A stretch of DNA of 32,435 nt from Nevskiales bacterium (GCA_041620675.1 JBFKCG010000003.1:1-32435); one strand, 5' to 3'; shown: positions 1,162 through 30,280, counted from the stretch's first letter. Notes: generated by a model not told the origin, from the sequence alone. Made by a program: numbers and translations.

Positions 1162-1440
1162 ATGGCAACGAAGACAGCAAGCCCGAAGAGAAAGCCCAGC
1201 GCGGCTTTCATGAAGCCGATGAAGGTGAGTCCTGCACTGGCCGCCGTGATTGGCAGTGAGCCGATGCCCCGCACCGAGGTGACCAAGAAGCTTTGGGCCT
1301 ATATCAAAAAGAACAAGCTTCAGGATGCGACCAACAAGCGCATGATCAAGTCTGACGAGAAGCTGAAAGTGGTTTTTGGTGGCAAGTCGGTCGTCAACAT
1401 GTTCGAGATGACCAAGCTGGTGAGCAAGCACCTGTCCTGA
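1162..1440 (+). CDS. Stand-alone SWIB/MDM2-domain protein (Lys-rich paralog)
   Basis: AFMKP..SPALAAVIG..PRTEVTKKLWAYIKKNKLQD..NKRMI..D..L..VF....VNMFEMTKLVSKHL is the SWIB signature. AGGAG at 1151-1155 precedes ATG 1162. Confidence 0.93.
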   Translation: MATKTASPKRKPSAAFMKPMKVSPALAAVIGSEPMPRTEVTKKLWAYIKKNKLQDATNKRMIKSDEKLKVVFGGKSVVNMFEMTKLVSKHLS

Positions 1441-1491
1441 GGGTGCCAAGGGGAGTGGTTCTTTATTTTGCGTGAAGCGAAGGAGGACACC

Positions 1492-1758
1492 ATGAGCAAG
1501 AAGAGAAGGAATCCGCGTTCGAGCTTCTGGAAGCCACTGCAGCCCAGCCCTAGGCTGGCCGCCGTGGTGGGTTCACGGCCAGTCACGCGCACGGAAATGA
1601 TCAGCAAGCTCTGGCGTTACATCAAGCGCAACAATCTGCAAAGCAAGACCAATCGCCGCATGATCAAGGCCGACGCGGCCCTGCGCGAGTTATTCAGGGG
1701 CAAGGCATCCGTGAACATGTTCGAAATGACACGGATGGCACATCGGCAGCTGGCGTAG
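1492..1758 (+). CDS. Second stand-alone SWIB/MDM2-domain protein (Arg-rich paralog)
   Basis: SPRLAAVVGS.P..RTEMISKLWRYIKRNNLQ...NRRMIKAD..L..LF.GK..VNMFEMT aligns with the upstream paralog. AGGAGG RBS at 1481-1486, ATG 1492. Confidence 0.9.
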   Translation: MSKKRRNPRSSFWKPLQPSPRLAAVVGSRPVTRTEMISKLWRYIKRNNLQSKTNRRMIKADAALRELFRGKASVNMFEMTRMAHRQLA

Positions 1759-1777
1759 CTAGCGAGAAGATCGAGGG

Positions 1778-1837
1778 AAGGGCGACAGATAATCTTTAGT
1801 CCCGGCATGACGGGATGATGAGTCTGTCGCCTTTTTT
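1778..1837 (+). terminator. Long hairpin/terminator after the SWIB pair
   Basis: GGCGACAGA (1781-1789) pairs with TCTGTCGCC (1823-1831); inner TCCCG/CGGGA stem; then TTTTTT. Confidence 0.6.
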
Positions 1838-1939
1838 CTGGGCACTGCTCCGCAGGCCCAGACGCCCGGAAGCTGAGGCGCAATGCCTTGCCAGGATGAC
1901 TCGCACGAACAATACAACCGGTGTGTTGTCCTATTGGCC

Positions 1940-3100
1940 ATGATGCCGCTGCGCTTCCCCTGTTTATTCGTGCCGCTTCGGGCAGGTATCGGCACGCGCA
2001 GCGTGCTGGCCGTGCTGCTATGGCTATCCTGTACTGCCGTGGTGCTTGCCGAGAATGTCGACAAGGAAATTCCTTACCGGCCAGTCAAGCTCGTGGGGGG
2101 ACTGGAGAACCCCTGGGGCATGGCGTTCTTGCCTGATGGCAGTGTGCTGGTCACCGAACGCCCAGGGCGCTTGCGGTTGATCAAGGATGGCCGGCTTCAA
2201 GCGGCCAGTATCAGCGGTTTGCCGCCCATCGTCGCGCGCGGCCAAGGCGGCCTGCTGGACGTGGCCCTGCATCCTGAGTTCAGTAAAGACCCTTGGGTGT
2301 ATCTGAGCTATGCAGCGCCTGGGAAGGGCGGCATGGGCACGGCCGTTGGGCGAGGTCGGCTCAAGGGCGGGCAATTGGCGCAATGGCAGACGCTGTTCAG
2401 CCTGGAACCGAAAACCGCAGAACGGCAGCATTTCGGATCGCGGCTCGTGTTCGATGCCAACAACCATCTCTTCATTACGCTGGGTGATCGCGCGGAGCGT
2501 GACCGCGCACAGGATCTGGCCGATCCGGCCGGTTCCGTATTGCGCCTGCATGACGATGGGCGCATACCCGCGGATAACCCATTTGCCAGCAGGAAGGGTG
2601 CACGTGCGGAAATCTACAGTTACGGCCACCGTAATCCGCAGGGAATGGCGATACACCCGGAGACAGGCCAACTCTGGTTGCATGAGCATGGGCCACAAGG
2701 AGGAGACGAGATTAATATCATCCGGGCGGGTGCCAATTATGGCTGGCCGGTGATTACCCATGGTCGTGAATATGTGACGGGCTTCAGGATTGGCGAAGGC
2801 ACCCATAAGCAGGGCATGGAGCAACCCCTGCACTACTGGGTACCGTCTATTGCCCCGTCAGGCATGGCGTTTTATGCAGGTGATCGCTATCCGCACTGGC
2901 GCGGCAACCTCTTCGTTGGCGCGCTGAAAGAACAGATGCTGGTCCGGCTTGAACTGGCTGGAAATCGCGTCGTTCGTGAGCAGCGACTGTACAAGGGGGA
3001 GATCGGGCGCATTCGCGATGTGCGAAATGGGTCCGATGGCTATCTGTACTTGTTGACTGACGATAACCCGGGTGCGCTGTATCGGCTGGAGCCGCGCTAG
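1940..3100 (+). CDS. PQQ-dependent aldose/sugar dehydrogenase (YliI/Asd, GSDH family), exported
   Basis: GLENPWGMAFLPDG, GQGGLLDVALHP, HFGSR, YGHRNPQG, EHGPQGGDE, NYGWP, SIAPSG and GRIRDV motifs; hydrophobic signal region. Start uncertain. Confidence 0.9.
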   Translation: MMPLRFPCLFVPLRAGIGTRSVLAVLLWLSCTAVVLAENVDKEIPYRPVKLVGGLENPWGMAFLPDGSVLVTERPGRLRLIKDGRLQAASISGLPPIVARGQGGLLDVALHPEFSKDPWVYLSYAAPGKGGMGTAVGRGRLKGGQLAQWQTLFSLEPKTAERQHFGSRLVFDANNHLFITLGDRAERDRAQDLADPAGSVLRLHDDGRIPADNPFASRKGARAEIYSYGHRNPQGMAIHPETGQLWLHEHGPQGGDEINIIRAGANYGWPVITHGREYVTGFRIGEGTHKQGMEQPLHYWVPSIAPSGMAFYAGDRYPHWRGNLFVGALKEQMLVRLELAGNRVVREQRLYKGEIGRIRDVRNGSDGYLYLLTDDNPGALYRLEPR

Positions 3101-3123
3101 CCGTATTGCCGGAATGAGGACGG

Positions 3124-3783
3124 TTAAGAGGACGCCTTGTCCTCTAGCCTGAGGATCAGGGCTTGCAGCCCGTTCTTGCGAAGCTCATGCACGAACATCC
3201 CGCGATAGTTCGTGACCAGGCTGATGCCATCAATCGAAAAGTCATAGACACGCCAGTCATCATTGACCTGATGTAGCCGGTACAGGACTGACAAGGGCGG
3301 GCCATCCTGTCGGAGTATGGATGAACTGACATCCGCCTGGCGCCTGTCATCGGAGTAAACGACCGGTTGCCATTCAAATGCATCCTCATCCACGCTGAGC
3401 AATGCCGCCGAATATTGCCGGATCAACAACACCTTGAAAGCCGTAATGAAGCGCTGGCGCTGTTCTGCTGTCGCGCCGTCCCAGTACTTGCCGAGGACCT
3501 TGTTCGAGATCTGGTTCATGTCGAAATGCGATGTCAGGCGCCGTTCAACCAGGCGATGCAGCTTCGATTGGTCGCGGGAATATTCCTCATGCCGCAGCCT
3601 GAGTTCCTGCATGAGTTCCTTCACGATCCTTTCTGCCAGTACATCGGGAGCCACGGTTTCCGCGTGCGCCGGGAAGAAGGCGGCTTGCCATGCCAGAGCC
3701 AATGCCATGCATAGCGCAATCCAGCCGCCGAGGCTGCTCGCAGGGGCTGGTGGCGCGTTATGTTTGATCAACATAATTGGCAT
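3124..3783 (-). CDS. mlaC: MlaC/Ttg2D-family periplasmic phospholipid-binding protein
   Basis: Signal peptide ending AHA; HFD....VLGKYW..AT.EQRQRF...F, YRLH....WRVYD..IDGISLV.NYR..F motifs. Start uncertain. Confidence 0.85.
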   Translation of the reverse strand: MPIMLIKHNAPPAPASSLGGWIALCMALALAWQAAFFPAHAETVAPDVLAERIVKELMQELRLRHEEYSRDQSKLHRLVERRLTSHFDMNQISNKVLGKYWDGATAEQRQRFITAFKVLLIRQYSAALLSVDEDAFEWQPVVYSDDRRQADVSSSILRQDGPPLSVLYRLHQVNDDWRVYDFSIDGISLVTNYRGMFVHELRKNGLQALILRLEDKASS

Positions 3784-4215: not shown

Positions 4216-4219
4216 TGAC

Positions 4220-9506: not shown

Positions 9507-10709
9507 CTACATGGTCAGGCGCAACAGGATCTTGGCCGCAACCTGACGAAACACTTCATCTAGGTCTGATGCGGTCGGCGCGAAGACCGCGGCCCCGGCG
9601 AGCTGAGTCGGGTTGTAGCTGGGGCTGCTGGGGTCATTCGCCATCTTCAGCAGCGAATTCTTCTCGATGTTGTTGCCCAGGCCAATCGCGAATACGATTA
9701 CGCCAGCCTTGCGTGCCTGCTCGGCGGATTTCTCGGCACGGAACAGCCCTTCTTCCGTGATGTTGCTGGAATTGCGGGTGCGGTTCTGCTGGTATTTCTC
9801 GGAGAAGAAGGTCGTCACTGACGAGTGGCAGGTCACTCGCTCGCCGTCCTTGGGATTCCGGAAGTCACTGGTGCCACTGCCGGGCGTAATGATCAGCTGC
9901 CGCGCCGGTTTGGTGGGGTCACATTTAACCGAGCTAAGGATGGCATTGGCGAAGCCGTCGGTGAAGAAGACCAGGGTCTTGAGTACGTTCTCGTCCGGAT
10001 TGACCTTCACGCCCTGGATCTCGCCATTGGCCATGTCGATGCCGCCATGGGCATAGGTCCAGCCGGTGAAATTGAGTTTGCCGGCTTCCTCCTTGATCTT
10101 TTTCTTGAAGTCCTTGGTCATCTCGACATCGACGGTGGAATGGTAGGCGTAACTGGTCATCGCCGCTTGATCGTTCTTGTCATCAAAAAAATCAATAAAA
10201 GTGGCCACGGCGCCTGGCAGGGCCTTGGCACCCCCATTGCCATTCATGGAGCCTGAACGATCCAGTGACAGGCCAATCAGCAGTTTTGCGCGTGCGGCTT
10301 CTGCACTGGCGCTGATGCCGACGGAATCAAAGGGCGGCAGGATGCTGATGAAAAAAGGGGTAACGCGGACTTTGGCCTCAACAGAGATCCGTCGGTTGTT
10401 ATTGCTGTCAGAAAAGAAGCGAATCTTCAGGTTGGGGTCACTGACCTGACGCGCTGGCAGGTTGGAGGCTGCATAGTTCATGAAAAAGGTGCTGGCGGCA
10501 ATCCGCTCGGCCTCAGCCTCGCCTTTGCCCAAAGTGCGCACGCCCATCAGCGCCGAGGCATCCACGCCTTTCGCCAGGGCAGCCTTGCTCATGTAGAAGA
10601 AGCCGGTGTCAATGGCGAGCCCAAACATCAGGATCAACACCAGCAGGCTGACGGCAAAGGTGACGAAGATGGCGCCTTGCTCGCGGGCATTTCTTGGCAG
10701 GATGTGCAT
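9507..10709 (-). CDS. tadG: TadG-like pilus adhesin/anchor with vWA domain
   Basis: Pilin-like N-terminus (EQG/AIFVTF + TM, LAIDTG, DASAL); vWA MIDAS DRSGS...T...FFTDG. Start reassigned to ATG 10709. Confidence 0.85.
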   Translation of the reverse strand: MHILPRNAREQGAIFVTFAVSLLVLILMFGLAIDTGFFYMSKAALAKGVDASALMGVRTLGKGEAEAERIAASTFFMNYAASNLPARQVSDPNLKIRFFSDSNNNRRISVEAKVRVTPFFISILPPFDSVGISASAEAARAKLLIGLSLDRSGSMNGNGGAKALPGAVATFIDFFDDKNDQAAMTSYAYHSTVDVEMTKDFKKKIKEEAGKLNFTGWTYAHGGIDMANGEIQGVKVNPDENVLKTLVFFTDGFANAILSSVKCDPTKPARQLIITPGSGTSDFRNPKDGERVTCHSSVTTFFSEKYQQNRTRNSSNITEEGLFRAEKSAEQARKAGVIVFAIGLGNNIEKNSLLKMANDPSSPSYNPTQLAGAAVFAPTASDLDEVFRQVAAKILLRLTM

Positions 10710-10719
10710 GGGTTCAGCC

Positions 10720-11247
10720 TCAGAAGAAGGCGACGTCGTAAGAAATCTCGCCAATGGATTGGTTGAGCAGCTTGCCGAGTGGCGTGATGGGCTCTGATTT
10801 GTAGAAGACCTCCGCGACATACAGGATCAGGCCCTGTGGTGGAATGGGTGAAGGCGTCGATGGCAGGGTGGCCGCGCTGCCGCTGCCCGAGCCGATACGA
10901 CTGGCTGAGGAAACCGTGCCGGATGAGACCTGGTTGCGGATCTTGACCTTGTTGTTCTGGTCGCGAATGACCTCGGTGATGATGATGAAGCCGTTTGCCT
11001 CCATGTCCAGCGGCTCGTCCGAGAGCTGGATGGCAGCAATGGAGTCATTCAACGACGTGCCGCGCGAGGCCAGGTTTGCGGCCTCCCGGCTCAGGTTGAG
11101 CAGGACTTGTCGCGTCAGCACGGCTCGACCGAGCTCTATCACGCCGAAGATAAGAACCAGGAGTATGGGCAGCACGAAGGCGAACTCCACCACGGCGATA
11201 CCGCGGTGATGGCGCGCCCCTCGACTTGTCCTGTCAGTGCGCCTCAT
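10720..11247 (-). CDS. TadE/TadF-like minor pilin
   Basis: RG/IAVVEFAFVLPILLVLIFGVIELG...SREAA signature. Confidence 0.88.
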   Translation of the reverse strand: MRRTDRTSRGARHHRGIAVVEFAFVLPILLVLIFGVIELGRAVLTRQVLLNLSREAANLASRGTSLNDSIAAIQLSDEPLDMEANGFIIITEVIRDQNNKVKIRNQVSSGTVSSASRIGSGSGSAATLPSTPSPIPPQGLILYVAEVFYKSEPITPLGKLLNQSIGEISYDVAFF

Positions 11248-11765
11248 TGGTTCACGGATGGCGGGAATGGCTCGTTCTTGAAACTGGTGCTGACCGTGAA
11301 CTTGTAGGCGCCGTCGTCGAAGAACTGGCTCAGCATCGGCGTGATGGGCTCGAAGCGGTAGCGCAGGGATATGGTCAGGATGTCGCCGGCATTGCCCGCG
11401 CTATTGGGTACTTGCGGGCCAGCAGGCTGGCCGCTGGATACGGAAATGTCAGCCTTGTCGATTTCAATGCCCGTAGCCGCCTGTGCCACCACCGCCTTGA
11501 TTGACTCAATGCGGGACTGTTTGGTCTTCGGATCGTTGGGATCATCAAGGCGCCCACCGGTGACCCCGTAACGGCCACCTTCACGCATGGCATGTTGCAG
11601 CGAGGTTTGGGTAAACATCAGGCGCGCGAAATCAATCACGCCGAACAACAGAAAAAGAAAAACGGGCAGCAGGATAGCCAACTCAACGGTTTCAACGCCG
11701 CGCTGGCGGCACCTGTTCCCGACCTCAGTGTGTCTTTTGAGACAGGTTGTCATTCCATCACGCAT
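11244..11765 (-). CDS. tadE: TadE-like minor pilin
   Basis: QRG/VETVELAILLPVFLFLLFGVIDF...REGGRY signature; 4-nt overlap with the next gene. Confidence 0.88.
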   Translation of the reverse strand: MRDGMTTCLKRHTEVGNRCRQRGVETVELAILLPVFLFLLFGVIDFARLMFTQTSLQHAMREGGRYGVTGGRLDDPNDPKTKQSRIESIKAVVAQAATGIEIDKADISVSSGQPAGPQVPNSAGNAGDILTISLRYRFEPITPMLSQFFDDGAYKFTVSTSFKNEPFPPSVNQ

Positions 11766-11844
11766 ATCTGGCCCGAGTTTTCCTACACACGATCAGTGCT
11801 GTCGAGTGGTTGAATCACACTAGTAGATTTCAGTGAAGTCTGGG

Positions 11845-11858
11845 TTGACTTAGGTCAA
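11845..11858. promoter_or_regulatory. FNR/ANR-family binding site in the divergent tadE/flp intergenic region
   Basis: TTGAC-TTAG-GTCAA; minus-strand -10 TAGTGT at 11822-11817 gives class II (-41.5) geometry. Confidence 0.65.
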
Positions 11859-11965
11859 TGCATCCATGTGCGCTAGGGAGGAACCTTGCGACATGGACAG
11901 GCAACCCTGCCGCCATGCAGCCCTAATCGAAGGGGTTTGCCAGAAATTGTTAAGGAGCCAATGCC

Positions 11966-12133
11966 ATGTCATTTCGAGATAGCGTCAAGCGGTTTATGCA
12001 AGATGAAGAAGGCCTGACGACAGTGGAATACGCCGTCGCCGGTGGCCTGATCGCAGCGGCCGTGATCGCCGCCTTCATCCTGTTGGGAGACAAGGTCAAC
12101 GAAAAGATCGGTGACATCACCGGCAACCTCTGA
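11966..12133 (+). CDS. flp: Flp/Fap type IVc major pilin (55 aa; missing from the ORF track)
   Basis: MSFRDSVKRFMQDEEG/LTTVEYAVAGGLIAAAVIAAFILLGDKVNEKIGDITGNL; Flp motif G-x4-EY; TAAGGAG RBS at 11951. Confidence 0.93.
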   Translation: MSFRDSVKRFMQDEEGLTTVEYAVAGGLIAAAVIAAFILLGDKVNEKIGDITGNL

Positions 12134-12145
12134 CCATGGCTGCAC

Positions 12146-12182
12146 AATGACGGCCCCGGGCAAATTCCTGGGGCTGTCGTTT
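12146..12182 (+). terminator. Stem-loop after flp (partial terminator or mRNA stabiliser)
   Basis: AATGACGGCCCCGGG-CAAAT-TCCTGGGGCTGTCGTT, with G-U pairs. Confidence 0.6.
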
Positions 12183-12218
12183 AGTCGCCAGATCTCCCAT
12201 ATAAAAAGTAAGTAGGGA

Positions 12219-12779
12219 ATGATCATGTTGCCGCACGATTTCCAGACGCTGACCCCCCTGCTGCTAGCGGCGGTGCTTGTTATCGCGGTCTGGCGAGATG
12301 TGACTCGTCACCGAATTGATAACTGGATCAGTGTTCTCGGAATTGGTGTGGCGCTTGGCCTGCAGCTGAATAGCGCAGGGATGGCTGGGCTGGCCCTTAC
12401 CCTTGGCGGCGTAATGGCCGGCCTCGCCATTTTTCTCCCGTTCTATGTCGCCGGTGGCATGGCTGCCGGTGACGTCAAGCTCATGGCCGCCGCCGGTGCC
12501 TTCCTCGGGCCCGTGGATGCCGTGATGGCAGGCCTCGCCAGCCTGATCGCCGGCACCGTGCTGGCGCTGCTGGTGATGGCGATGCATGGCGGCTTGCGCG
12601 AGGGCCTCGGTCATACCGGTCGCCAGGTGCTGGGTTTTGGCATGACGCGTATTTGGGTTCGTGCAAGTCCAGATTCAATCGCTGCTCGCCGGTTTCCTTA
12701 CGCTGGCGCAATTGCGGTTGGTTGCCTCTCGATATCAACCCTGCGGCTGTCCGGTGTGCTGCCAGGCGTCGTCCAGTAA
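12219..12779 (+). CDS. cpaA: Prepilin peptidase, A24 family (CpaA/TadV)
   Basis: Multi-TM; D...RI.N and GGMAAGDVKL catalytic Asp motifs; FPYA..I near the C-terminus. Confidence 0.92.
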   Translation: MIMLPHDFQTLTPLLLAAVLVIAVWRDVTRHRIDNWISVLGIGVALGLQLNSAGMAGLALTLGGVMAGLAIFLPFYVAGGMAAGDVKLMAAAGAFLGPVDAVMAGLASLIAGTVLALLVMAMHGGLREGLGHTGRQVLGFGMTRIWVRASPDSIAARRFPYAGAIAVGCLSISTLRLSGVLPGVVQ

Positions 12780-12797
12780 AGGTGCAGGAGATTACAC

Positions 12798-13583
12798 ATG
12801 ACCAACCGCCGCAATATCCTCATTTTCCTGATGCTCGCCGCCATTCTCGGCTTGGGGTCGGCCTTTCTGGCGCAGCGTTGGACTGAAGGTCGTATGGATG
12901 AGGCCAGGCAGCAGGCCAGCAGCAAGCTCACCAAGGTCGTGGTTGCCAAGGGCGAAATCACCTTTGGCAAGCGAATTGATCAGAGCACCATCAAGACGGT
13001 CGATTGGCCCAAGGATGCCGTGCCTCCGGGCGCGTTTCACATGATGGAGGACGTGGTTGGTCGCCAGTCCAAGTACCACATCCTCCCGGGTGAACCGATC
13101 CTCGAGCCACGCGTGGCGGATCCCAACAAGAGCCCATTACTGGCGGGCCTGATTGAGCCCAACAAGCGAGCCGTCACCGTACGCGTCGATGACGTGGTCG
13201 GCGTCGCGGGCTTCCTGTTGCCGGGTAGTCACGTTGATGTGCTGGCCTCGCGTCGCCTGGATTCTGATCGTTACGACACTCGCACGGTGCTGCATAACCT
13301 GAAGGTATTGGCGGTAGACCAGACCGCCTCGACCGGCAGCGAGGATAAGCCCGTGGTAGTGAGGGCGGTAACGTTGGAAGCAGACCTCAAACAGGCGGAA
13401 GTACTGGTGCAGGCCACCAGCGAGGGCAGCGTCCAGCTGGCCCTGCGCAACCCGGAAGATGATGCCGTGCCTGTCGTCGCCGAGGCGCCGGCACCCGTGC
13501 GGACGGCACCGCGCAGGACGAGCAGCAACCAAGTCACCGTCATTCGTGGCACCCATTCCAATTCTGCTGAAACCCGGCAGTGA
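12798..13583 (+). CDS. cpaB: Flp pilus assembly protein CpaB/RcpC
   Basis: N-terminal TM, SAF-like region (VVVAK..I), RAVTVRVDDVVGVAGFLLPG..VDVL, LALRNP. Confidence 0.93.
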   Translation: MTNRRNILIFLMLAAILGLGSAFLAQRWTEGRMDEARQQASSKLTKVVVAKGEITFGKRIDQSTIKTVDWPKDAVPPGAFHMMEDVVGRQSKYHILPGEPILEPRVADPNKSPLLAGLIEPNKRAVTVRVDDVVGVAGFLLPGSHVDVLASRRLDSDRYDTRTVLHNLKVLAVDQTASTGSEDKPVVVRAVTLEADLKQAEVLVQATSEGSVQLALRNPEDDAVPVVAEAPAPVRTAPRRTSSNQVTVIRGTHSNSAETRQ

Positions 13584-13609
13584 GCGCAGTCATGGACAAG
13601 GAGCAAGTT

Positions 13610-15202
13610 ATGAAAGCTCGCATTCGAACCCGGTCTTCAGCCAGCACAGGTCGCCTGATCCTTGCCATGGGACTTCTGTTCTTGCTGGTGGCTGCTTTGT
13701 TGGCCACCAACGCAAGTTCGGCAGGAGATGGCAATAACCTGACGGTACCGTTGTACAAATCAACCACGGTGCGACTGCCGCAGCCAGCCAAGCGGGTTTC
13801 GGTCGGCAATCCTGGTGTAGCCGACATCGTGATCCTGCATAGCCAGGAATTACAGATCGTTGGCAAGTCACTGGGCGCTACCAACCTAGTGGTGTGGGAC
13901 AAGAACAGCCGGGTGCAAGCGTCCTACAACATTGAAGTTGTGCATGACCTGGTCACGCTGCAGGACAAGCTGCATGCCTTATTGCCAGGTGAATCCATCA
14001 GAACGACCTCAGCCCAGGAAAACATCGTGCTGAGCGGCGAGGTCAAGAACGCCAGCCAGATGCAGGCAGCCGTCGCGCTGGCAGAAAGCTTCATACCGGA
14101 ATGCATCGAGGCCGTAACGCAGGGTGATGGCGGCAAAGGTGCGGTAACCGCGTTGCCTGGCGTGGGCAAGGGCCGTGACTGTGACAAGGGCAAGGTGGTG
14201 AACCTGATGCAGGTCGGTGGTGCGCAACAGGTCATGCTGGAAATAAAGGTCGCGGAGATGGCGCGCACGGTGCTCAAGACCATGGATGCTGATGTCAACA
14301 TCTACAACCTCGGCAAGCGCGGTGGCTTCGGCGCCGTCGAGGGCGGTGCCAACTTCCCCAATTCCGGCGGACCTGTCCTGGCCGGTCCGGGTGGGCCCAT
14401 CGGCCCAAATGTAGACCTGTTCGACCCGGTCGCACCCGCGATCGACAACAGCGGGATATTTTTCAGCTATCTCAAGGGTGACCTGTTCCTGCAGGCAGTG
14501 CTTGAGATTTCACGGCGCAAGGGCTTGGCGAAGATCCTGTCGGAGCCGACGCTGACTACGCTCAATGGCCAGGAAGCAGAGTTCCTGTCCGGTGGTGAGT
14601 TCCCCATCCCGGTGCCGCAGGGCACGGGCAACAGCATCACGATCGAGTTCAAGGAATTTGGCGTTGGCGTCAAGTTCATCCCGGTCGTGCTGGACTCGGG
14701 TCGCATCAATCTCAAGCTTAATGTTGCCGTCAGTGAGCTCTCCCAAGACAACAATGTGCAGCTAGCGGCTGCCGGTACCGCCAGCGCCTTCGTCATTCCT
14801 TCGCTGACCAAGCGCAGCGCCAAGAGCACGGTGGAATTGGCCAACGGACAAACGATCGGCATCGCCGGCTTGATCAGCGACAACACACGCGAGTTCGTCG
14901 ACAAGCTGCCGGGCCTGGGTGATATCCCGGGCCTGGGCGCGCTGTTCCGGAGCCAGGAATTCCGCTCAGGGCAGACCGAGCTGGTGATCTTTGTCACGCC
15001 ACACCTGGCGCGGCCGATCAGCCAGGCCAAGATCTCGCTGCCCACGGACAGCTTCGTGCCCCCCAGTGATCGTGATTTCTACCTGATGGGTCGCATGGAG
15101 GCAAAGGATGCCAAGGACGGCAAGGCGGCACCGCGCCGAGTAGCCAGGCCCGAGAGTTCTAAGGGCGGCATCGAAGGCGCCAGCATCGGCCATGACCTCT
15201 AG
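13610..15202 (+). CDS. cpaC: Tad secretin CpaC/RcpA
   Basis: VGNPGVAD, QVMLEIKVAE, ILSEP.L...NGQEA.FLSGGEFPIP and LPGLGDIPGLGALFRS..TELVIFVTP; AAGGAG RBS before ATG 13610. Confidence 0.94.
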   Translation: MKARIRTRSSASTGRLILAMGLLFLLVAALLATNASSAGDGNNLTVPLYKSTTVRLPQPAKRVSVGNPGVADIVILHSQELQIVGKSLGATNLVVWDKNSRVQASYNIEVVHDLVTLQDKLHALLPGESIRTTSAQENIVLSGEVKNASQMQAAVALAESFIPECIEAVTQGDGGKGAVTALPGVGKGRDCDKGKVVNLMQVGGAQQVMLEIKVAEMARTVLKTMDADVNIYNLGKRGGFGAVEGGANFPNSGGPVLAGPGGPIGPNVDLFDPVAPAIDNSGIFFSYLKGDLFLQAVLEISRRKGLAKILSEPTLTTLNGQEAEFLSGGEFPIPVPQGTGNSITIEFKEFGVGVKFIPVVLDSGRINLKLNVAVSELSQDNNVQLAAAGTASAFVIPSLTKRSAKSTVELANGQTIGIAGLISDNTREFVDKLPGLGDIPGLGALFRSQEFRSGQTELVIFVTPHLARPISQAKISLPTDSFVPPSDRDFYLMGRMEAKDAKDGKAAPRRVARPESSKGGIEGASIGHDL

Positions 15203-15212
15203 GAGATGTGAC

Positions 15213-15506
15213 ATGAAGCAGACAACAAGCGTAAACGCACTGGGGTTCGTGGCTGCCATGCTGCTGGCCGGTTGTGCCATGACCGCCTCTACCGATCCGA
15301 CCCGGGTTGAGAATGACTTCGGGAACTCGGTCAGGCAGATGGTGGATGGACAAATCTATGACACCAAGGCGGCACGCAAGCCCGCGACCGAACCGCCCTT
15401 GGGCCAGGATGGTGCACATACCGAGGTCATCCTAAGAAAACACCGTGAGCATGTCGGCGATCCCGCTTCTGTGGACGATGACGTGCGCGTGGGCGTAACC
15501 CAATGA
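15213..15506 (+). CDS. Small lipoprotein in the tad operon (secretin-associated candidate)
   Basis: AGGAG RBS; lipobox LLAGC; lies between cpaC and cpaE. Confidence 0.75.
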   Translation: MKQTTSVNALGFVAAMLLAGCAMTASTDPTRVENDFGNSVRQMVDGQIYDTKAARKPATEPPLGQDGAHTEVILRKHREHVGDPASVDDDVRVGVTQ

Positions 15507-15536
15507 CCGTGGGTACGCATTGTCAGGAGAGTCCAC

Positions 15537-16742
15537 ATGCATGAAAGGCACATAATCTGGATTGACGCGGCGACAGCCGAAGGTTGCACTCGGCTGACGG
15601 AGGCGCTTCAACACCAGAAGGACCTCGACATCCACTCCCGAGTGAGGAAGCCGGGGCCGCTGACATCCCCGTCATTCACCCCTTCAAGCCCGCGCATGGT
15701 CCTGCTGGAGCTGGGGGAACATGGGTCGCAGTTGCTCAGGGACTGGACGGAGCTGGCGGAGACCGCAGGCATCCCGCTCATCGTGGTAGGCCCCCCCCAC
15801 GACAGCCAGTTGATGCGCCGCGCGATGCAGGCTGGTGCGCGCGATTATTTCTCCGAGCCATTGCCCGTGGATGAGCTGGTGTCCTCCGTGCGGCAGATTG
15901 TGGCTGAAGCAGATGAGGCCGCGCTGGTGCGGCCGGGCGGAAAACTGACGTCGGTCATTGATGCCAAGGGTGGCTCGGGCGCGTCCTTTGTCGCCTGCAA
16001 CCTGGCCCATATGCTGACAGCGCACCTTGACCGAAAGACCGCGCTGATTGACATGGATCTGCAGTTCGGTGCCCTGCCGCTGGCGCTGGACATGAGCCCG
16101 AAATCAACGCTGTTTGACGTCATCGGGGCAGCCGATGGCCTTGATGCAGTGGCGCTTCGTGCCTACATGGCCGAGCACAGCAGTGGCTTGCATGTGCTTG
16201 GCACAATGGGCGAGCAGCTGGTCATGCCCTGGGAGGTGTCGGTAGAGGCGGCACAGAAGGTGCTGCGAGTTGCGCTGCAGAGTTATGCGCACGTGGTGAC
16301 CGATCTGCCGCGCTCAATCGACCCGATCACCAGCATGGTGCTCAGCGCATCGGATTTGATCATGGTCGTGATGCAAAGAAGTTTTGCGCACCTGCGGGAT
16401 GCACAACGCATGTTCAGCCTCATGCGAGGCTATCTGGGTATCCCCTCGGAACGCATCATCCTGGTCGTCAATCGCAACGAGGGCAAGAGCCCCATCACCA
16501 TTGATGATATCAACCAGGCCATACGGCCTTCCTTCATCGCGCAGATTCCAAACGACTTCGAGCATGTGACGGAGTCAATGAACCTCGGCGTGCCGTTGTA
16601 CAAGAGCGTGCGCACCGCACCGGTGACCAAGGCCTTGTGCAAGCTCGCCGAGCGGGTTGACGGTGTGATTGAAACGACGCCCGAGCAGGAAGAGCCCGCC
16701 CATGCTGGCGGCATCGCACGCCTCCTGGGCATGAATAAGTAA
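15537..16742 (+). CDS. cpaE: CpaE/TadZ (receiver-like domain plus MinD-type ATPase)
   Basis: AMQAGARDY receiver-like motif; deviant Walker A KGGSGAS; LIDMDLQFG. Confidence 0.92.
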
Positions 16743-18121
16743 TGGAGATGAAACTGGGTACCGGTACCCGGGGGGCGGACGCCAAGTCTGGCGCCTCGGG
16801 AGCATCAGGCAATCCAGCAGGAAATGCCATGAGTCGTACGATCAGTGGCACTGCTCAAGACCAGGATTGGGTGAAGATCGTACACCACGACTTGCTGGAG
16901 CAACTGGACCTCGCCCGCCTGGGCTCCTTGGATGAGCAGGCCGCGCGCCAGGAAATTCGAGACCAGGCCCAGCGCATCATGCAGGAGCACTCCGTTCCGC
17001 TGTCGGCGATGGCGCGCCAGCAACTGGCCAAGAGTGTCGAGGATGAAATCCTGGGCCTGGGTCCACTTGAGCCATTACTCAATGATCCGGACGTCTCTGA
17101 CATTCTCGTCAACGGGTACAACAAGGTTTTCGTGGAGCGACACGGCAAGCTTGAGTCAACCAACGTGCGGTTTCGTGACGAGGCGCACCTGATGATGATC
17201 ATTGATCGGATCGTAACCCGCGTGGGCCGTCGCATCGATGAATCATCGCCGATGGTGGACGCGCGCCTGGAAGATGGCTCGCGCGTCAATGCCGTCATCC
17301 GTCCACTGGCGCTGGATGGCGCGATGCTGTCCATCCGCCGTTTTCGCGTTGACAGCATGAGCGCGGAGGATTTCACCCGATTGGGTAGCTGGACGCCGGC
17401 CATCGGTGAGGTGCTCAAGGGCGTGGTGAGTGGACGCCTGAACGTGCTCATCTCCGGTGGTACCGGCACTGGCAAGACCACGCTGCTGAATGTGCTGTCT
17501 GGCTTCATCCCGCCTGACGAACGCATCATCACGATCGAGGATTCTGCTGAGCTTTGCCTGCGACAGCCTCATGTGGGTAGGCTGGAGACCCGTCCGGAAA
17601 ACATTGAGGGCAGGGGTGAAGTGACCCAGCGCGACCTGGTACGCAATGCCCTGCGCATGCGGCCGGACCGGATCATCGTCGGCGAGGTGCGCGCGGGCGA
17701 GGCTTTCGACATGCTGCAGGCCATGAATACCGGCCATGACGGCTCCCTGACCACAGTCCATGCCAACACCCCACGTGATGCCCTGTCTCGCATCGAGAAC
17801 ATGGTGGCCATGACGGGTATTGAGTTGCCCCCGCGTGCCGTGCGCAGCCAGATAGCCTCCGCCATCGACGTGGTGATCCAGTTAGAGCGCATGGAAGATG
17901 GCGTGCGCCGCCTGGTGAGCCTGCAGGAAATCCAGGGCTCAGAGGGGGACGTGATCATCATGGCCGAGATCTTTCGCTTTGAGCGCACAGGTCTCAGCAA
18001 GGACGGCAAGGTACTGGGCAAGTTTCGCGCCACGGGTCTGGTGCCGCATTTTCATGCGCCCTTGCATCGCCGTGGCATCGAACTCGATCTCCACCTGTTC
18101 GATATGGACAGGGAAGTTTAG
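16742..18121 (+). CDS. cpaF: Tad motor ATPase CpaF/TadA
   Basis: [30 protein letters not shown] and [14 protein letters not shown]. Confidence 0.96.
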
Positions 18122-18130
18122 GAGTTGGTT

Positions 18131-19093
18131 ATGGATCTCATGGTATGGCTCATCCCAGGATTTGTTTTCATCGCGGTCTTTGCGATCGTCTTGATGTTTG
18201 TGGTGCCATTCACCAACGACGACAAGAAGCGGATGCGCGAGCGCATGGCCAAGATCAACCATGGCGTGATGCCCGAGGCAGCGCACTCCCTGCTGCGGGA
18301 CCAGTACCTGCGCCAACTCTCCCCGCTGGAGCTGTGGCTGGAGGATTTGCCGGGCATGCGCAAGATCGAGCTCTTGTGTGAACAGACCGGCCGCCATATC
18401 CCCGCCTATCGTGTGGTACTGCTGGCACTCGCACTGGCGTCGGCTGCCGGCTTACTGCTGCTAGCCTTTGGGCGTCCGTGGTTTGCACTGCTAGTCTTTA
18501 TCCTGGTTCTGCCGCTGCCTTACCTCAAGCTGAAGAAGGATGCAGAGGCGCGGTTACTGCAATTTGAGCAGCAACTGCCGGACGCGCTTGATGTCATCAG
18601 CCGGGCCCTACGCGCAGGTAATCCCTTCGTTGAGACCCTGCGCGTGGTTGCCGAGGAAATGGATGATCCCATCGCCACAGAATTTGGCATCACGTTTTCC
18701 GACCTGAATTACGGCGTCAGCATCCGGTCCGGCTTTATGGCACTGCTTGAGCGGATACCCAACGTCGGTCTGGCGGCAATGGTAACGGCAGTACTGGTGC
18801 AACGGGAAACTGGTGGCAACATGGCCGAGATCCTTGACCGCATTGCTAGCGTATTGCGCCAGCGCATGCGTTTCCAGAGACGCCTGAAGACCCTGACGGC
18901 CGAAGGGCGCATGTCAGCCACGATACTTGTGCTGATGCCCTTCGTGCTGGCGCTGGTGCTTGCCTTCATTGCGCCGGATTACCTGCCCATGCTGTTGGAT
19001 AGCCCCATCGGCATCCAGCTAATCGGCTTGGCCCTGCTCATCATGGGGTTTGGAATCTGGTGGATTCGCCGAATCATCCGGGTGCAATTCTAG
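18131..19093 (+). CDS. tadB: Tad platform protein TadB
   Basis: T2SSF-like QLPDALD...LRAG, QRETGGN and TAEGRMS. Confidence 0.92.
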   Translation: MDLMVWLIPGFVFIAVFAIVLMFVVPFTNDDKKRMRERMAKINHGVMPEAAHSLLRDQYLRQLSPLELWLEDLPGMRKIELLCEQTGRHIPAYRVVLLALALASAAGLLLLAFGRPWFALLVFILVLPLPYLKLKKDAEARLLQFEQQLPDALDVISRALRAGNPFVETLRVVAEEMDDPIATEFGITFSDLNYGVSIRSGFMALLERIPNVGLAAMVTAVLVQRETGGNMAEILDRIASVLRQRMRFQRRLKTLTAEGRMSATILVLMPFVLALVLAFIAPDYLPMLLDSPIGIQLIGLALLIMGFGIWWIRRIIRVQF

Positions 19094-19102
19094 GAATGGC
19101 CC

Positions 19103-20044
19103 ATGAATAGCCTGACCACACTTGCGGAAAGCCCCTTCTTCGTCCAGCTGCTGGCCGGTGCGATCGGGGTCGCTGTCATGCTGGCAGCATTCCTCTTCCT
19201 CAGCATCGCGGGTGAGCGTGCGCATCCATTGCGGCGGCGACTCAACCGCCTGGGCACTGTCGATCTGCAGACCTCGGAAGTGACCGAGCCCGGCATGGGC
19301 AGTACCTTGCGTCCATTCGGAACTTATCTTTTGCCCAAGCATGAGAAAGAGCGCGAGACCCTCAAGCTCAAGTTGATACGCGCAGGCTTCCGATCAAAGA
19401 CTGCCGCCATCAATCTCTACATCGCCAAGATCGTGCTGGCGATCGTTCTGCCCATCGCGGTCTTGGCCCTGCTGGTTTCGACCACGGAGCTTGACGCCGC
19501 CTTTCTTGTGCTGATCGCGAGCGCGGTTTCCATGACGGGCCTTTTCCTGCCGAATTACCTACTGGATATCCGCATACAAAAGCGGCACCGGGAAATGTTG
19601 TATGCGTTGCCTGATGCGCTGGACCTCCTGGTGGCCTGTACCGAGGCGGGCTTGGGATTGAATGCGGCCTTGCAGCGGGTGGCCCGGCAGATGGACATCA
19701 GCAGCCCGCTGCTGGCCAGGGAGCTGGAACAGGTCAATGCGGAAATGCGTGGCGGCATGGACCGCATAGCCGCGCTCAGGAACCTGACTCATCGCACCGG
19801 CCTGGAGGAGATCCGTGGCCTGGTGTCGCTGCTGTCACAAAGTGTGCGCTTTGGTAGTGCCATTGCGGACATCCTGCGCATATATGCCGAGGAGTTTCGC
19901 GATAAGCGTTCGCAGGCAGCCGAAGAGCAGGCTGCCCTCGTCGGCACCAAGCTGATCTTCCCCTTGTGCTTTTGTATCTTCCCGTCGTTCTTCATTGTGG
20001 CAGTGGGGCCTGCGGTGGTGGCACTGGTCAAGGCACTGGCGTGA
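19103..20044 (+). CDS. tadC: Tad platform protein TadC
   Basis: LPDALDLLVAC.EAGLGL, AEEQA...KLIFPL..CIFP and GPA. Confidence 0.92.
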   Translation: MNSLTTLAESPFFVQLLAGAIGVAVMLAAFLFLSIAGERAHPLRRRLNRLGTVDLQTSEVTEPGMGSTLRPFGTYLLPKHEKERETLKLKLIRAGFRSKTAAINLYIAKIVLAIVLPIAVLALLVSTTELDAAFLVLIASAVSMTGLFLPNYLLDIRIQKRHREMLYALPDALDLLVACTEAGLGLNAALQRVARQMDISSPLLARELEQVNAEMRGGMDRIAALRNLTHRTGLEEIRGLVSLLSQSVRFGSAIADILRIYAEEFRDKRSQAAEEQAALVGTKLIFPLCFCIFPSFFIVAVGPAVVALVKALA

Positions 20045-20085
20045 AGGCTTGCTGGATGGTTTATAGGGATTCGGGAGACTTCGAC

Positions 20086-20982
20086 ATGAAGAAGAAATCA
20101 CGGATGGGATCAATCAATGTGCTGTTGCGGCCGCTCGTGGGCGTGCTGGTGTTGTTCCTGGCCAGCTGCACGGCGATGCCAACGAAGCACAATGTCCAGG
20201 GGTCCGAGCCCAATGAAGCGCAGCAGGCACTGCAGCGCGGGGACAGTGCATTCCAGGCGGGAGATTCCGGCAAGGCACTCATGGAATATGTCAGTGCCCT
20301 GCAGGCTGATCCGAAGAATATCGAAATACATTACCGGATCGGTGCGACTTACGAGGCCCGCGGAGAAAACCAGGCGGCACGGCAGGCCTTTCAGGACGCT
20401 CTCAAGATCAATCCGGCTCATGTCGGCGCACAAGAAGGCCTCGGCCTAGCCTTGATGAAGCTGCACCAGAAGAAAGAAGCGAAGACGCATCTGCAGCGTG
20501 CGCTGGCTGCCGATCCAAAACGCTGGCGCACACTCAACGGACTGGGGGTCGTGGCCGACCTGGAACGTAACCCCGAAGCAGCGTTCGGCTATTACCAGGC
20601 TGCGCTCAAGATCAAGCCGAATCACCCGATGTTGCTGAATAACCTGGGCTATTCGCGCTATCTGGCGGGCGACTATCCGGCTGCGCGTTCCTACTTCGAG
20701 CGTGTTCTGGCGCAAGACGCAGATAATCGTCGCGCCTGGGCCAACCTGGCGCTGGTCCAGGTCAGGCAGGGCAACAACGATGCCGGGGTGGCAGCCTTCG
20801 CCGAGGTGCTTGAACCGTATCAGGCCAATAATAATGTGGGCTACCTGCTCTATAAGCAGGGCAAGTTGAATGAGGCACGGCATTACTTGCAACGTGCCGT
20901 CAGCCTGTCGCCCACCTATTACGCGATGGCCAAGGAAAACCTGGCGCGCGTTGACGCGGCATCAAATTCCAAACCTCGGTAA
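20086..20982 (+). CDS. tadD: TadD-like TPR lipoprotein
   Basis: Lipobox LASC; multiple TPRs (LNNLGYS, NNVGY); last gene of the tad operon. Confidence 0.85.
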   Translation: MKKKSRMGSINVLLRPLVGVLVLFLASCTAMPTKHNVQGSEPNEAQQALQRGDSAFQAGDSGKALMEYVSALQADPKNIEIHYRIGATYEARGENQAARQAFQDALKINPAHVGAQEGLGLALMKLHQKKEAKTHLQRALAADPKRWRTLNGLGVVADLERNPEAAFGYYQAALKIKPNHPMLLNNLGYSRYLAGDYPAARSYFERVLAQDADNRRAWANLALVQVRQGNNDAGVAAFAEVLEPYQANNNVGYLLYKQGKLNEARHYLQRAVSLSPTYYAMAKENLARVDAASNSKPR

Positions 20983-21149: not shown

Positions 21150-21620
21150 ATGCCACGCAATATCACGCTTCGCAGTTCTGCCATCCACGGCAAAGGCATT
21201 TTTGCCGCCCGTGACATCCCCGCCGGCACCGAGATCATCGAATATCGTGGACGTGTCATTACGCACCGGCAGGCGGATCAATGGTATGGCGTGTATGAAG
21301 GCGAGGATGATGGCCATACCTTCTTGCTGACCTTGAATGACAAGTTCATCCTGGACGCGAACGTGGATGGCAACTGGGCGCGTTGGATTAACCACAGCTG
21401 CGATCCCAATTGTGAATTGCTGCTGTGGGAGCACGAGTCCGGTGACCCGCGCCGAGAACGCGTGCTCATCAGCGCGATCCGGCGTATCCGCAAGGGCGAG
21501 GAGCTGACCTACAACTACGGGATTGAGGCGCACGAGCCCGTCACGCCGGCCATGCGCGAAGTGTGGGCCTGTCGCTGCGGTGCCGTCGGTTGCCAGGGGA
21601 CGATGCTCAAGGCGGGATAG
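21150..21620 (+). CDS. SET-domain protein-lysine methyltransferase with post-SET Zn motif
   Basis: SAIHGKGIFA, EYRG, RWINHSCDPN, GEELTYNY and CRCGAVGC. Confidence 0.95.
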   Translation: MPRNITLRSSAIHGKGIFAARDIPAGTEIIEYRGRVITHRQADQWYGVYEGEDDGHTFLLTLNDKFILDANVDGNWARWINHSCDPNCELLLWEHESGDPRRERVLISAIRRIRKGEELTYNYGIEAHEPVTPAMREVWACRCGAVGCQGTMLKAG

Positions 21621-27816: not shown

Positions 27817-27874
27817 TCTGACCGGTCGTGTTGCCTGCGACGCAGGCGTACCATACGGACATGGCCCGACCGGG

Positions 27875-29008: not shown

Positions 29009-29338
29009 ATGGCAACGAAGAAAGCAGCAAGAAAAAAAGCAGCACCCAGTCAGACACGTGCGGTCAAGGCAGCATGGGCAAAAGTCAGGCAGTCATTGAC
29101 ACGCGCCGAGAAGGCGATGGTTGATGTTGTCAATGCCAATCGCGCCCTGATGAAGGCTCTGGGCAATGCAGGCGTCTCCATGACCCATAGTGCGCGCAAG
29201 GACATGGATGCGCGCATTCGCAAGCTGGACGTCAGCAAAAAAAGCGCACGCAAGCACCTGGACCAGCTGACCAAGCGCCTGGTGGCGATGGCCAAGAAGG
29301 CACAGGCCAAGGTCAAGCCCAAGGCCAAGCGCCGCTAG
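29009..29338 (+). CDS. Lys/Ala/Arg-rich basic protein (histone H1-like termini, helical core)
   Basis: AAGGAGAGG RBS; 20 K and 12 R versus 6 D/E in 109 aa; MATKKAARKKAAP...AKKAQAKVKPKAKRR; followed by a terminator. Confidence 0.8.
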   Translation: MATKKAARKKAAPSQTRAVKAAWAKVRQSLTRAEKAMVDVVNANRALMKALGNAGVSMTHSARKDMDARIRKLDVSKKSARKHLDQLTKRLVAMAKKAQAKVKPKAKRR

Positions 29339-29357
29339 CGCGGTGGACGGATGAATT

Positions 29358-29381
29358 AAGGCGGCCACTGGCCGCCTTTTT
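29358..29381 (+). terminator. Intrinsic terminator
   Basis: AAGGCGGCC-ACT-GGCCGCC-TTTTT. Confidence 0.85.
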
Positions 29382-29423
29382 CTTGGCTATCCTTTTTAGT
29401 TACACGCTATACATAGAGCAGAC

Positions 29424-30098
29424 ATGACACCGAAGTTTGATTCCATCTATCAACGCGCCGTGGCACGCAAGGGGGGTGAAGCGGCGTTGCGAAAGCTGTT
29501 CCCGAAGCTGCGAAGTGCTGCCCAGCTCAGGCGCATCCCGGATGATCGCTGGCTGGCCGAAATCACCCGACGCGTGTTCTGTGCCGGTTTCGTCTGGAAG
29601 ATCATCGAGCACAAGTGGCCTCATTTCGAGAAGGCCTTCAAGGGCTTCAGTCCACATGCGGTTGCACATATGTCAGACGAGGTACTGGAGCGCCTGGCCG
29701 CAGACCCTCGCATCGTGCGTAATTATCAGCGCATCAAAAGCGTGCGCGAAAACGCCTTGTTTGTGCTCGAGATCGCAGAGGCGCATGGCAGTTTCGGCCG
29801 ATTCATCGCAGACTGGCCCGGTGATGACATTGTTGGCCTGTGCGCGCTGCTGAAAAAGCGCGGGAGTCGACTGGGCGGCATCAGTGGGCAATATCTCCTG
29901 CGCTTCATGGGCAAGGACACGTTCTTGCTGACACCGGACGTGATCACCTGCCTGAACAATCATGGCGTGTTGACAAGCACGTCGCCGACTTCCAAGCGTG
30001 ACCTTGCAACCATCCAGCGCACATTCAATGCCTGGCATGAGCAGACTGGCTTGCCACTCTCAGCCTTGAGTCGCATCGCGTCATGCGCGGTTGACTAA
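29424..30098 (+). CDS. DNA-3-methyladenine glycosylase I family protein
   Basis: DDRWL......FCAGF.W..I..KWP.F..AF.GF and RIVRN...I..V..NA motifs of the Tag family. Confidence 0.82.
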   Translation: MTPKFDSIYQRAVARKGGEAALRKLFPKLRSAAQLRRIPDDRWLAEITRRVFCAGFVWKIIEHKWPHFEKAFKGFSPHAVAHMSDEVLERLAADPRIVRNYQRIKSVRENALFVLEIAEAHGSFGRFIADWPGDDIVGLCALLKKRGSRLGGISGQYLLRFMGKDTFLLTPDVITCLNNHGVLTSTSPTSKRDLATIQRTFNAWHEQTGLPLSALSRIASCAVD

Positions 30099-30134
30099 GG
30101 CTAGGATCGTGCCTGGCGGGTTGCGCGCATGCTC

Positions 30135-30163
30135 TTCCATCCGCGGTGATTTGGTGACATGAT
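30135..30163 (+). promoter_or_regulatory. Putative sigma70 promoter for the Lys-rich micro-ORF
   Basis: TTCCAT-17 nt-CATGAT with extended -10 TG at 30155-30156. Confidence 0.4.
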
Positions 30164-30238
30164 CAAGACGGCAGAACTGAGAGGAGGAGGGTTTTCTCGG
30201 TGAATGCCACTTTGTTCCACCACATAGGAGGAGCTACC

Positions 30239-30280
30239 ATGGCTGCCAAGAAGAAAGCCGCTAAGAAAAAGAAAAAGTAA
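30239..30280 (+). CDS. 13-aa Lys-rich micro-protein MAAKKKAAKKKKK
   Basis: TAGGAGGAG RBS 5 nt before ATG; clean ORF to TAA; terminator begins 20 nt downstream. Confidence 0.65.
   Translation: MAAKKKAAKKKKK

Follow-up and report, generated by a model that had tools for sequence, protein, structure and literature searches.

Tandem SWIB genes, a SET methyltransferase gene and a poly-lysine micro-gene on one contig of a Nevskiales bacterium

Does a 32,435-nucleotide (nt) contig of a Nevskiales bacterium (GCA_041620675.1, JBFKCG010000003.1:1-32435; the whole stretch is called the window here) encode a chromatin-like system of the bacterium's own? The window holds two tandem SWIB genes, a gene for a SET-domain lysine methyltransferase, a gene for a 109-amino-acid (aa) basic protein and a 13-codon poly-lysine micro-open reading frame (micro-ORF). 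A preliminary description had read these five as a toolkit in which small basic nucleoid proteins are the substrates of the SET enzyme. All five elements are indeed present. As that description had conceded, they are dispersed rather than operonic; unrelated operons lie between them. According to the accessible portion of a review (PMC10117894), it is still open whether bacteria methylate lysines of their own DNA-coating proteins, as happens on eukaryotic histone tails.

We find no support from gene context for the toolkit reading or for its claim about substrates. The window would more plausibly hold four separate things, namely the SWIB pair, SET, the 109-aa gene and the micro-ORF. Across genomes the SWIB and SET families show a coupled distribution although they are not neighbors. 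The micro-ORF is one of a class of micro-genes that is widespread, seems not to have been described before and has a distribution that does not follow SWIB or SET. The features concerned are as follows.

1162..1440 (+): SWIB1, 92 aa, minimal SWIB/MDM2 domain with a short basic N-terminus (PF02201, E 1.5e-31)
1492..1758 (+): SWIB2, 88 aa, tandem paralogue of SWIB1 (PF02201, E 1.5e-24)
21150..21620 (+): SET/post-SET protein lysine methyltransferase, predicted, 156 aa, free-standing (PF00856, E 3.5e-27)
29009..29338 (+): 109-aa basic protein (no Pfam or NCBIfam family; AlphaFold2 model)
30133..30164 (+): conserved box, ~75-105 nt 5' of the micro-ORF (invariant in a three-genome alignment)
30226..30233 (+): putative Shine-Dalgarno (SD) box AGGAGGAG of the micro-ORF (sequence reading; kept in G001)
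30239..30280 (+): 13-codon poly-Lys micro-ORF MAAKKKAAKKKKK (identical peptide in G001)
30300..30334 (+): hairpin and U-run resembling an intrinsic terminator, closing the micro-ORF transcript (RNA folding; stem kept in G001 and G005)

The window is the entire contig C3 of a 2.54 Mb assembly (G000; 342 contigs, completeness 100%, contamination 1.9%). It was compared with G001, a genome of the same genus (completeness 98%), and with a sample of 41 genomes, G000 included, from eight families of its own order, among them f1, f2, f3 and f5, with f2 as the sister family. A second sample comprised 81 genomes of ~60 families from the order of G162, a genome of the same class as the window bacterium.

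Gene context and gene products

A single contig of G001 carries, in order, nrdA, a 17-aa poly-Lys ORF, nrdB, SWIB1, SWIB2, a P450 gene, the dehydrogenase, PLD and desaturase genes, TetR, the 109-aa gene, an acyltransferase gene, a 13-aa ORF identical to that of the window and the acyl-CoA synthetase gene. This syntenic contig is without the MlaC-to-kinase block, the Tad locus, the TPR gene, SET, the phosphoenolpyruvate carboxylase gene, the beta-lactamase-fold gene and Tag, and SET was not found anywhere in G001. Close relatives thus differ in the segment that contains SET, and all four basic genes are retained where SET is missing. SWIB and SET shared a contig in none of the nine f2 genomes that hold both, which likewise speaks against a five-gene toolkit. 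The flanks of ten f2 SET orthologues had no gene in common with one another or with the window, and the proximity of SET to the Tad pilus locus was not seen beside any of the ten. Among 20 genomes of the G162 order with both families, SWIB and SET were adjacent in one, and in five others they lay on one contig at least 150 kb apart. In G162 (L040:5986-9601; G162:C1, ~4.340-4.344 Mb), SET has as its divergent neighbor the gene for a 1056-aa topoisomerase III-SWIB fusion; the topoisomerase III carries a C-terminal Lys/Ala tail and the SWIB domain, the adjacent SET has a Lys/Pro/Ala-rich N-terminus, and a biotin ligase gene follows.

SWIB1 and SWIB2 score 108.4 and 86 bits against PF02201 (cut-off 25; profile positions 1-74 and 1-72 of 74, respectively). 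SWIB2 starts 51 nt 3' of SWIB1, there are no other SWIB copies in the 2.54 Mb assembly, and the tandem pair is retained in G001 (83% identity). Orthologues of SWIB1 in its own order are 67-80% identical to it, and some have H1-like tails. Such Lys/Ala/Pro repeat tails, 50-70 aa long and of the histone-H1-like kind, occur on the SWIB orthologues of five f2 genomes and on the small SWIB of G162; the G001 orthologue of SWIB1 has a 20-residue Lys-rich start, and those of families f3 and f5 are bare (85-86 aa). The window's own SWIB1 and SWIB2 are without long Lys/Ala/Pro tails and have only 12-17 basic N-terminal residues. The resemblance of such basic starts (MATK/MAAKK) among the window's small proteins had been noted; being of low complexity, the starts are not evidence by themselves. 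Among solved structures, the closest to SWIB1 is the SWIB domain of yeast UAF30 (7z0o_G, E 3.2e-15), which is attached to a basic region, as in the tailed bacterial relatives. The plant plastid nucleoid protein SWIB-4 also joins a SWIB domain to a basic region, whereas the window proteins have only the short basic N-terminus. The accessible part of PMC6426960 reports that a SWIB-only protein of Waddlia binds heparin, gives 1920 genome-wide chromatin immunoprecipitation sequencing (ChIP-seq) peaks and reaches the host nucleus. The tails on the SWIB orthologues and the heparin and ChIP-seq results, as far as that part of the paper gives them, fit a DNA-coating role, and the suggestion that the SWIB proteins are nucleoid proteins thus remains plausible. 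nrdB is the conserved left neighbor of SWIB, lying directly 5' of it in families f1 and f3 (L004, L005, L006, L014), an adjacency without obvious reason.

SET matches PF00856 over the full profile (95.3 bits, cut-off 22.4, positions 1-105 of 105) and keeps GxG, NHSC, ELTYxY and a post-SET CxCx4C. We take GxG, NHSC and the Tyr of ELxYxY to be S-adenosylmethionine-binding and catalytic motifs, and CxCx4C to be the Cys residues of the post-SET zinc cluster. H13, G14, G16, N81, S83, C84, Y123, C141, C143 and C148 are invariant in 11 SET orthologues, and Y121 is nearly so. With its profile match and all checked motifs kept, the gene has rightly been called intact. Comparison with the human KMT2 SET/post-SET domains (KMT2A, KMT2B) gave E ~1e-25 with catalytic and post-SET motifs aligned, and the solved KMT2/MLL-type structures 7bre_B and 7w67_C align over residues 8-149 at ~90 bits, with GxG, NHSC, ELTYxY and CxCx4C all in register. 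Unlike the KMT2/MLL proteins, the window protein is a bare 156-aa catalytic module without WIN, PHD or other chromatin-reading parts; it consists of SET and post-SET only, and no extra targeting domain was seen. Its identity to the SET proteins of f2 is 47-59%. The nearest NCBIfam model, AnkI/LegAS4 (NF043024), gave 51.7 bits against a cut-off of 550, with only the SET part aligned (profile 32-140 of 439), which falls short of a full-length match that includes ankyrin repeats. The assembly contains no other SET copy. The gene is flanked on its 5' side by TPR, the last gene of the Tad pilus locus, which ends 168 nt away on the same strand, and on its 3' side by a PLD-family gene. By its motifs, SET is predicted to be a catalytically intact MLL-type lysine methyltransferase, encoded in a variable segment.

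The 109-aa protein (20 K, 12 R, 23 A, 2 P) has no Pfam or NCBIfam family match. Four close homologues were found among 5.8 billion proteins, and a search of 1.84 billion proteins at E<=0.001 gave a family of 20 cluster representatives, all of 70-117 aa except one 498-aa multi-stretch match; the 13 representatives examined share a conserved core, RAAW...RTE...AN...LG.AG. The gene was found in three of the 41 genomes of the window's order. An AlphaFold2 model (pLDDT 71.6) has two long helices (13-53 and 60-100) and disordered Lys/Arg ends. Foldseek against PDB returned none at E<=0.001, and the ESM Atlas none at 0.9 or above, its nearest clusters being unnamed. As modeled, the protein is a lineage-restricted helical hairpin with basic ends, and it could bind nucleic acid. 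The label 'H1-like' does not suit it: the protein has no repeats, no 30-aa window with at least 10 Lys, only two Pro and no linker-histone or Hc family match, and its model is a two-helix hairpin. Bacterial H1-like Lys/Ala/Pro repeat proteins (presumably of the Hc1/Hc2 and AlgP type) resemble the micro-ORF peptides and the f2 SWIB tails in Lys/Ala composition; they differ from the 109-aa protein, which lacks repeats and has two long helices, and from the micro-ORFs, which at 12-23 aa are far shorter and are free-standing with their own SD box and often a terminator.

The most H1-like sequence of the genome lies outside the window and is a 164-aa Lys-rich repeat protein of no Pfam family (G000:C26:10231-10725, -). 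Also among the most H1-like is a 173-aa protein (G000:C18:20851-21372, +) in which an AtuA ferredoxin-like domain is joined to a Lys-rich N-tail. A DNA search with the micro-ORF returned a long Lys/Ala/Pro repeat ORF of H1-like kind whose start is similar to the micro-ORF (L036; G009:C16, ~598.76 kb). A weak match to the 109-aa protein (28-32% identity) lies inside a 325-aa frame at L032:13513-13719 (G036:C3, ~301.5 kb), ~29 kb from the SWIB gene of G036.

The 30 likely genes of the window were scanned against Pfam, and two further features complete the picture.

1..1047 (+): nrdB 3' part, ribonucleotide reductase small chain (PF00268, E 1.3e-90)
9507-20982: complete Tad/Flp pilus locus (TadG, two TadE, CpaA, CpaB, CpaC secretin, CpaE, CpaF, TadB, TadC, TPR)

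SWIB2 is followed, in order, by genes for a glucose/sorbosone dehydrogenase, MlaC, DUF192, a cytochrome c, a PAS histidine kinase and a P450, and then by the Tad locus. After SET come the PLD-family gene, phosphoenolpyruvate carboxylase, a fatty-acid desaturase, TetR, a beta-lactamase-fold gene and the 109-aa ORF, and then a Tag-like glycosylase, the 13-codon ORF and a long-chain acyl-CoA synthetase. Four public DNA runs of one study, labeled marine metagenome, contain the window, and no RNA run was listed among the public runs containing it. Rfam gave no match on the whole window at gathering scores and none on 29950-30500 at E<=10.

Distribution of the SWIB and SET families

Across the 41 genomes of the window's own order, SWIB occurs in 15 and SET in 11. 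Ten genomes have both (G000 and nine of f2), five have SWIB only (G001, G003, G005, G010 and G015, of which G005 is unpublished), one has SET only (G023) and 25 have neither. With G000 left out, the counts of both, SWIB only, SET only and neither are 9, 5, 1 and 25, an odds ratio of 45. In the 81 genomes of the G162 order the same counts are 20, 12 (one of them G314, unpublished), 2 and 47, an odds ratio of 39 (p 7e-9). P450, an unrelated accessory family, served as the control in these same 81 genomes; its odds ratio was 3.6 when paired with SWIB and 4.3 when paired with SET. Restriction to genomes of at least 3.5 Mb (17, 5, 2 and 11) left a SWIB-SET odds ratio of 19. Among 15 phylum-diverse genomes, picked solely for carrying a poly-Lys micro-ORF, five had both families, ten had neither and none was discordant. 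Changes within families were joint in two cases and single in six.

The lack of a correlated distribution had been named beforehand as an outcome that would count against the toolkit; for SWIB and SET the correlation proved strong (odds ratio 39, versus 3.6 and 4.3 for the control). The extension of that correlation to the 109-aa gene and the micro-ORF was not seen: G001 keeps both without SET, and the micro-ORF class does not depend on SET in its distribution. The frequent presence of SWIB together with SET in bacterial genomes is already in print (PMC6426960, in its accessible part, citing Aravind, Abhiman and Iyer 2011); the present counts add that the coupling is ~10 times that of a control family. 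SWIB and SET are thus coupled across genomes without adjacency, and a shared process is therefore likely.

The nearest parallel is chlamydial. As in the window, chlamydiae combine a small SWIB-only protein and a small SET protein (NUE) in the same genome and in no operon, and their topoisomerase-SWIB fusion has a counterpart in G162, beside SET. The window bacterium differs in being of free-living type, with no type III or type IV secretion system marker found, in having its SWIB genes as a tandem pair next to nrdB, and in showing no Hc1 or Hc2 family match among 30 window proteins.

The poly-lysine micro-genes

The preliminary description had also pointed to a poly-Lys micro-peptide gene at 30239-30280. 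Its sequence supports the reading as a putative gene, with an ATG, an SD box, an in-frame stop and retention in relatives. The box AGGAGGAG lies 5 nt upstream of the 13-codon ORF. A hairpin followed by UUUU lies 3' of it (-32.9 kcal/mol, z -3.76; 0 of 200 shuffles fold as well). A consensus promoter and terminator scan of 29900-30500 returned 0 sites and the hairpin was then shown by folding; the miss may be due to its long interrupted stem. In G001 the 13-aa ORF, the upstream box and the terminator are all retained, and the peptide is the same with one synonymous change. The unpublished genome G005, of family f5, also keeps micro-ORF, box and terminator, with synonymous Ala-codon changes. The gene downstream encodes an acyl-CoA synthetase in G000 and G001 and a membrane protein in G005. 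The conserved box at 30133-30164 (32 nt) is nearly invariant in these three genomes of two families; it showed no match to the sigma-70 consensus and, by eye, no convincing match to a sigma-54 promoter or palindromic operator. It may be a promoter or operator.

The whole assembly contains four ORFs of at most 40 aa with at least 45% Lys, and two of these have an ATG and an SD box: the 13-aa ORF of the window and a 23-aa ORF between nrdA and nrdB on contig C139 (G000:C139:4867-4938, +). The latter position is also occupied in G001 (G001:C184:18976-19029, -, 17 aa), with a conserved GAGGAGGG box and an in-frame length change between the two; outside family f1, no micro-ORF was found between nrdA and nrdB in G010. 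C139 was considered as the left neighbor of the window and rejected, since its last 846 nt match window positions 1-846 at only 85% (128 mismatches, no gaps) and its nrdB protein is 83% identical to that of the window, compared with 95% for the nrdB of G001. Either the assembly has a second nrdA-microORF-nrdB locus, on C139, or this contig belongs to a co-binned relative.

The class was defined by an ATG, 12-23 Lys/Ala codons, an SD box, an in-frame stop and retention in relatives, and the pattern 'MA[AT]KKKA ... KKK stop' was scanned over species-representative genomes. It matched at least 119 stretches of public genomes. At the 80 loci analyzed (L042-L121, public records of metagenome-assembled genomes (MAGs)), all 82 pattern matches were in-frame ORFs of 12-20 aa. 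An SD-like box preceded 76 of the 82 micro-ORFs, versus 12 of 82 random positions, and a terminator-like hairpin accompanied 40 of the 82, versus 3 of 82 random segments. By record title, the carriers include Acidobacteriota, Binatia, Nitrospirota, Gemmatimonadota, Methylomirabilota and Alpha-, Beta- and Gammaproteobacteria, and further Patescibacteria, Verrucomicrobia, Planctomycetes, Omnitrophota and several archaeal groups. The genes upstream (80 ORFs scanned) vary between lineages and recur within them. A same-strand Orn/DAP/Arg decarboxylase gene recurs at six loci, for most of which the record title gives Betaproteobacteria or Burkholderiales; a gene for ribonucleotide reductase or for its TSCPD domain, also on the same strand, recurs at three. 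Sigma-54 activators (four loci), MurB (three) and Rce1-like proteases (four) are other upstream neighbors.

The distribution of the micro-genes does not follow SWIB or SET. Both families are absent in 10 of the 15 tested micro-ORF genomes. Of the 41 genomes of the window's own order, three show the pattern (G000, G001 and G005; a reversed-pattern control gave 0), and it is found in none of ten SET-positive f2 genomes, which indicates that the micro-genes are distributed independently of SET.

Six class members of 20-23 aa gave no Pfam or NCBIfam match even at E<=10, and no description of poly-Lys micro-ORFs was found in literature searches or in a word look-up of the sORFdb paper, which is not proof of absence. 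For comparison we used very small basic ribosomal proteins, which we take to be represented by bS22, bL37, eL41 and Thx, and attenuator leader peptides. With both the micro-ORFs share the character of tiny, highly basic and strongly translated ORFs, translation of the micro-ORFs being predicted, and with leader peptides they also share a terminator hairpin directly 3' of the ORF. They differ from the small ribosomal proteins in that the six members matched no NCBIfam or Pfam model, and from leader peptides in that the downstream gene varies between relatives (G000 and G001 versus G005). The differing downstream genes argue against the leader of a fixed operon. We regard it as evenly balanced whether the poly-Lys micro-genes would be a real, translated and pan-prokaryotic class of micro-proteins missed by annotation pipelines.

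Competing explanations and their meaning

The explanation that we favor, and on the whole think probable, has four parts. The tandem minimal SWIB proteins next to nrdB are most likely small DNA- or nucleoid-associated adaptor proteins. SET would methylate lysines of a DNA-associated basic protein, which is the most economical mechanism, and the first candidates for its substrate would be the SWIB proteins or their Lys/Ala/Pro tails. The 109-aa gene would encode a lineage-restricted helical-hairpin protein with basic ends that is separate from the others. The micro-genes most likely give abundant polycationic peptides that would bind nucleic acids or other polyanions. Several observations weigh against this explanation. 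All SWIB and SET copies of G000 lie on one 32-kb contig, which separate units leave to chance; the presence of both SWIB genes and the only SET gene within such a contig is a ~1.5% event for one pair, a figure that is post-hoc and a co-location not reproduced in relatives. Kinship makes the genomes non-independent, and Fisher p-values, which ignore it, overstate the coupling. In a class-wide sample of 249 other genomes, SWIB occurs in five and some SET in 75, and the coupling is weak: four of the five SWIB-positive genomes have SET, 71 of the 75 SET-positive genomes are without SWIB, and of nine genomes whose SET scores high (E<=1e-19), just one, G162, has SWIB. SWIB without SET is common, both among SWIB-positive relatives in the window's own order (5 of 14) and in the G162 order (12 of 32). 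Alternatively, the micro-ORF could be an element that acts in cis or at the RNA level.

The preliminary description's proposal of one endogenous chromatin-like system made up of all five genes, with the poly-Lys peptide, the 109-aa protein and the SWIB pair as nucleoid proteins that SET would methylate, draws on the presence of every SWIB and SET copy, the 109-aa gene and the micro-ORF in one 32-kb contig and on the co-occurrence of SWIB and SET across bacteria. There are said to be precedents: Manzur and Zhou in 2005 reportedly described an archaeal SET protein acting on MC1-alpha, and Murata in 2007 a chlamydial one acting on Hc1. The chlamydial result is called discordant in the accessible text of PMC6426960. 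We consider such a system improbable, given that G001 keeps the four basic genes without SET, that the micro-ORF class is found without SET in 10 of 15 tested genomes and in none of ten SET-positive f2 genomes, that the 109-aa family has only 20 cluster representatives and occurs in 3 of 41 related genomes, that the genes are dispersed with unrelated operons between them, and that the genome's most H1-like protein is on another contig. We give equally little credence to the view that SET, and perhaps SWIB, are exported effectors acting on eukaryotic host chromatin in the manner of chlamydial NUE, Legionella LegAS4/RomA or Burkholderia BtSET. The NCBIfam model nearest to SET is indeed that of a type IV secretion system effector, AnkI/LegAS4, albeit far below its cut-off, its nearest solved relatives are eukaryotic KMT2 enzymes, the Waddlia SWIB protein enters the host nucleus (PMC6426960, accessible part), and the genome is small (2.54 Mb). 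Yet neither VirB4 (type IV secretion) nor FHIPEP (type III or flagellar export) gave a family match in the assembly, rated 100% complete, SET consists of its catalytic module without added targeting domains, the runs containing the window are labeled marine metagenome, and the SET-SWIB pair occurs in many lineages labeled environmental (Binatia, Gemmatimonas and Verrucomicrobiia MAGs).

A third view holds that the substrate of SET is an unrelated abundant bacterial protein, for instance part of the pilus, an elongation factor or a ribosomal protein, and that SWIB and SET occur together only because of common ancestry and lifestyle. In its favor, SET lies 168 nt 3' of the Tad pilus and TPR genes on the same strand, no conserved SET gene neighborhood was seen anywhere, and the P450 control also reaches odds ratios of ~4 from genome size and kinship alone. 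This view is unlikely in our estimation, as the SWIB-SET odds ratio is ~10 times as high as the control's and persists both in large genomes and among different phyla, and the Tad-SET adjacency is absent beside the ten f2 orthologues. Our favored explanation could also be carried much further. Lys/Ala-rich tails might be the working substrate of a bacterial lysine-methylation system, fused to SWIB in f2 and G162 or, in the window lineage with its bare SWIB, present as free micro-proteins of 13-23 aa, on which an MLL-type SET would write methyl marks that tune the coating of DNA by polycations; we regard this as a long shot and the least probable of the proposals here.

The window does not settle whether bacteria use lysine methylation to mark DNA-coating proteins of their own. 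The coupling of SWIB and SET holds in free-living-type bacteria of several phyla, at ~10 times the level of a control family, and points to tail-bearing SWIB proteins as the first substrates to consider. The most interesting by-product of the analysis is the class of poly-Lys micro-genes, which, if translated, would be an overlooked source of abundant polycations in bacterial and archaeal cells.

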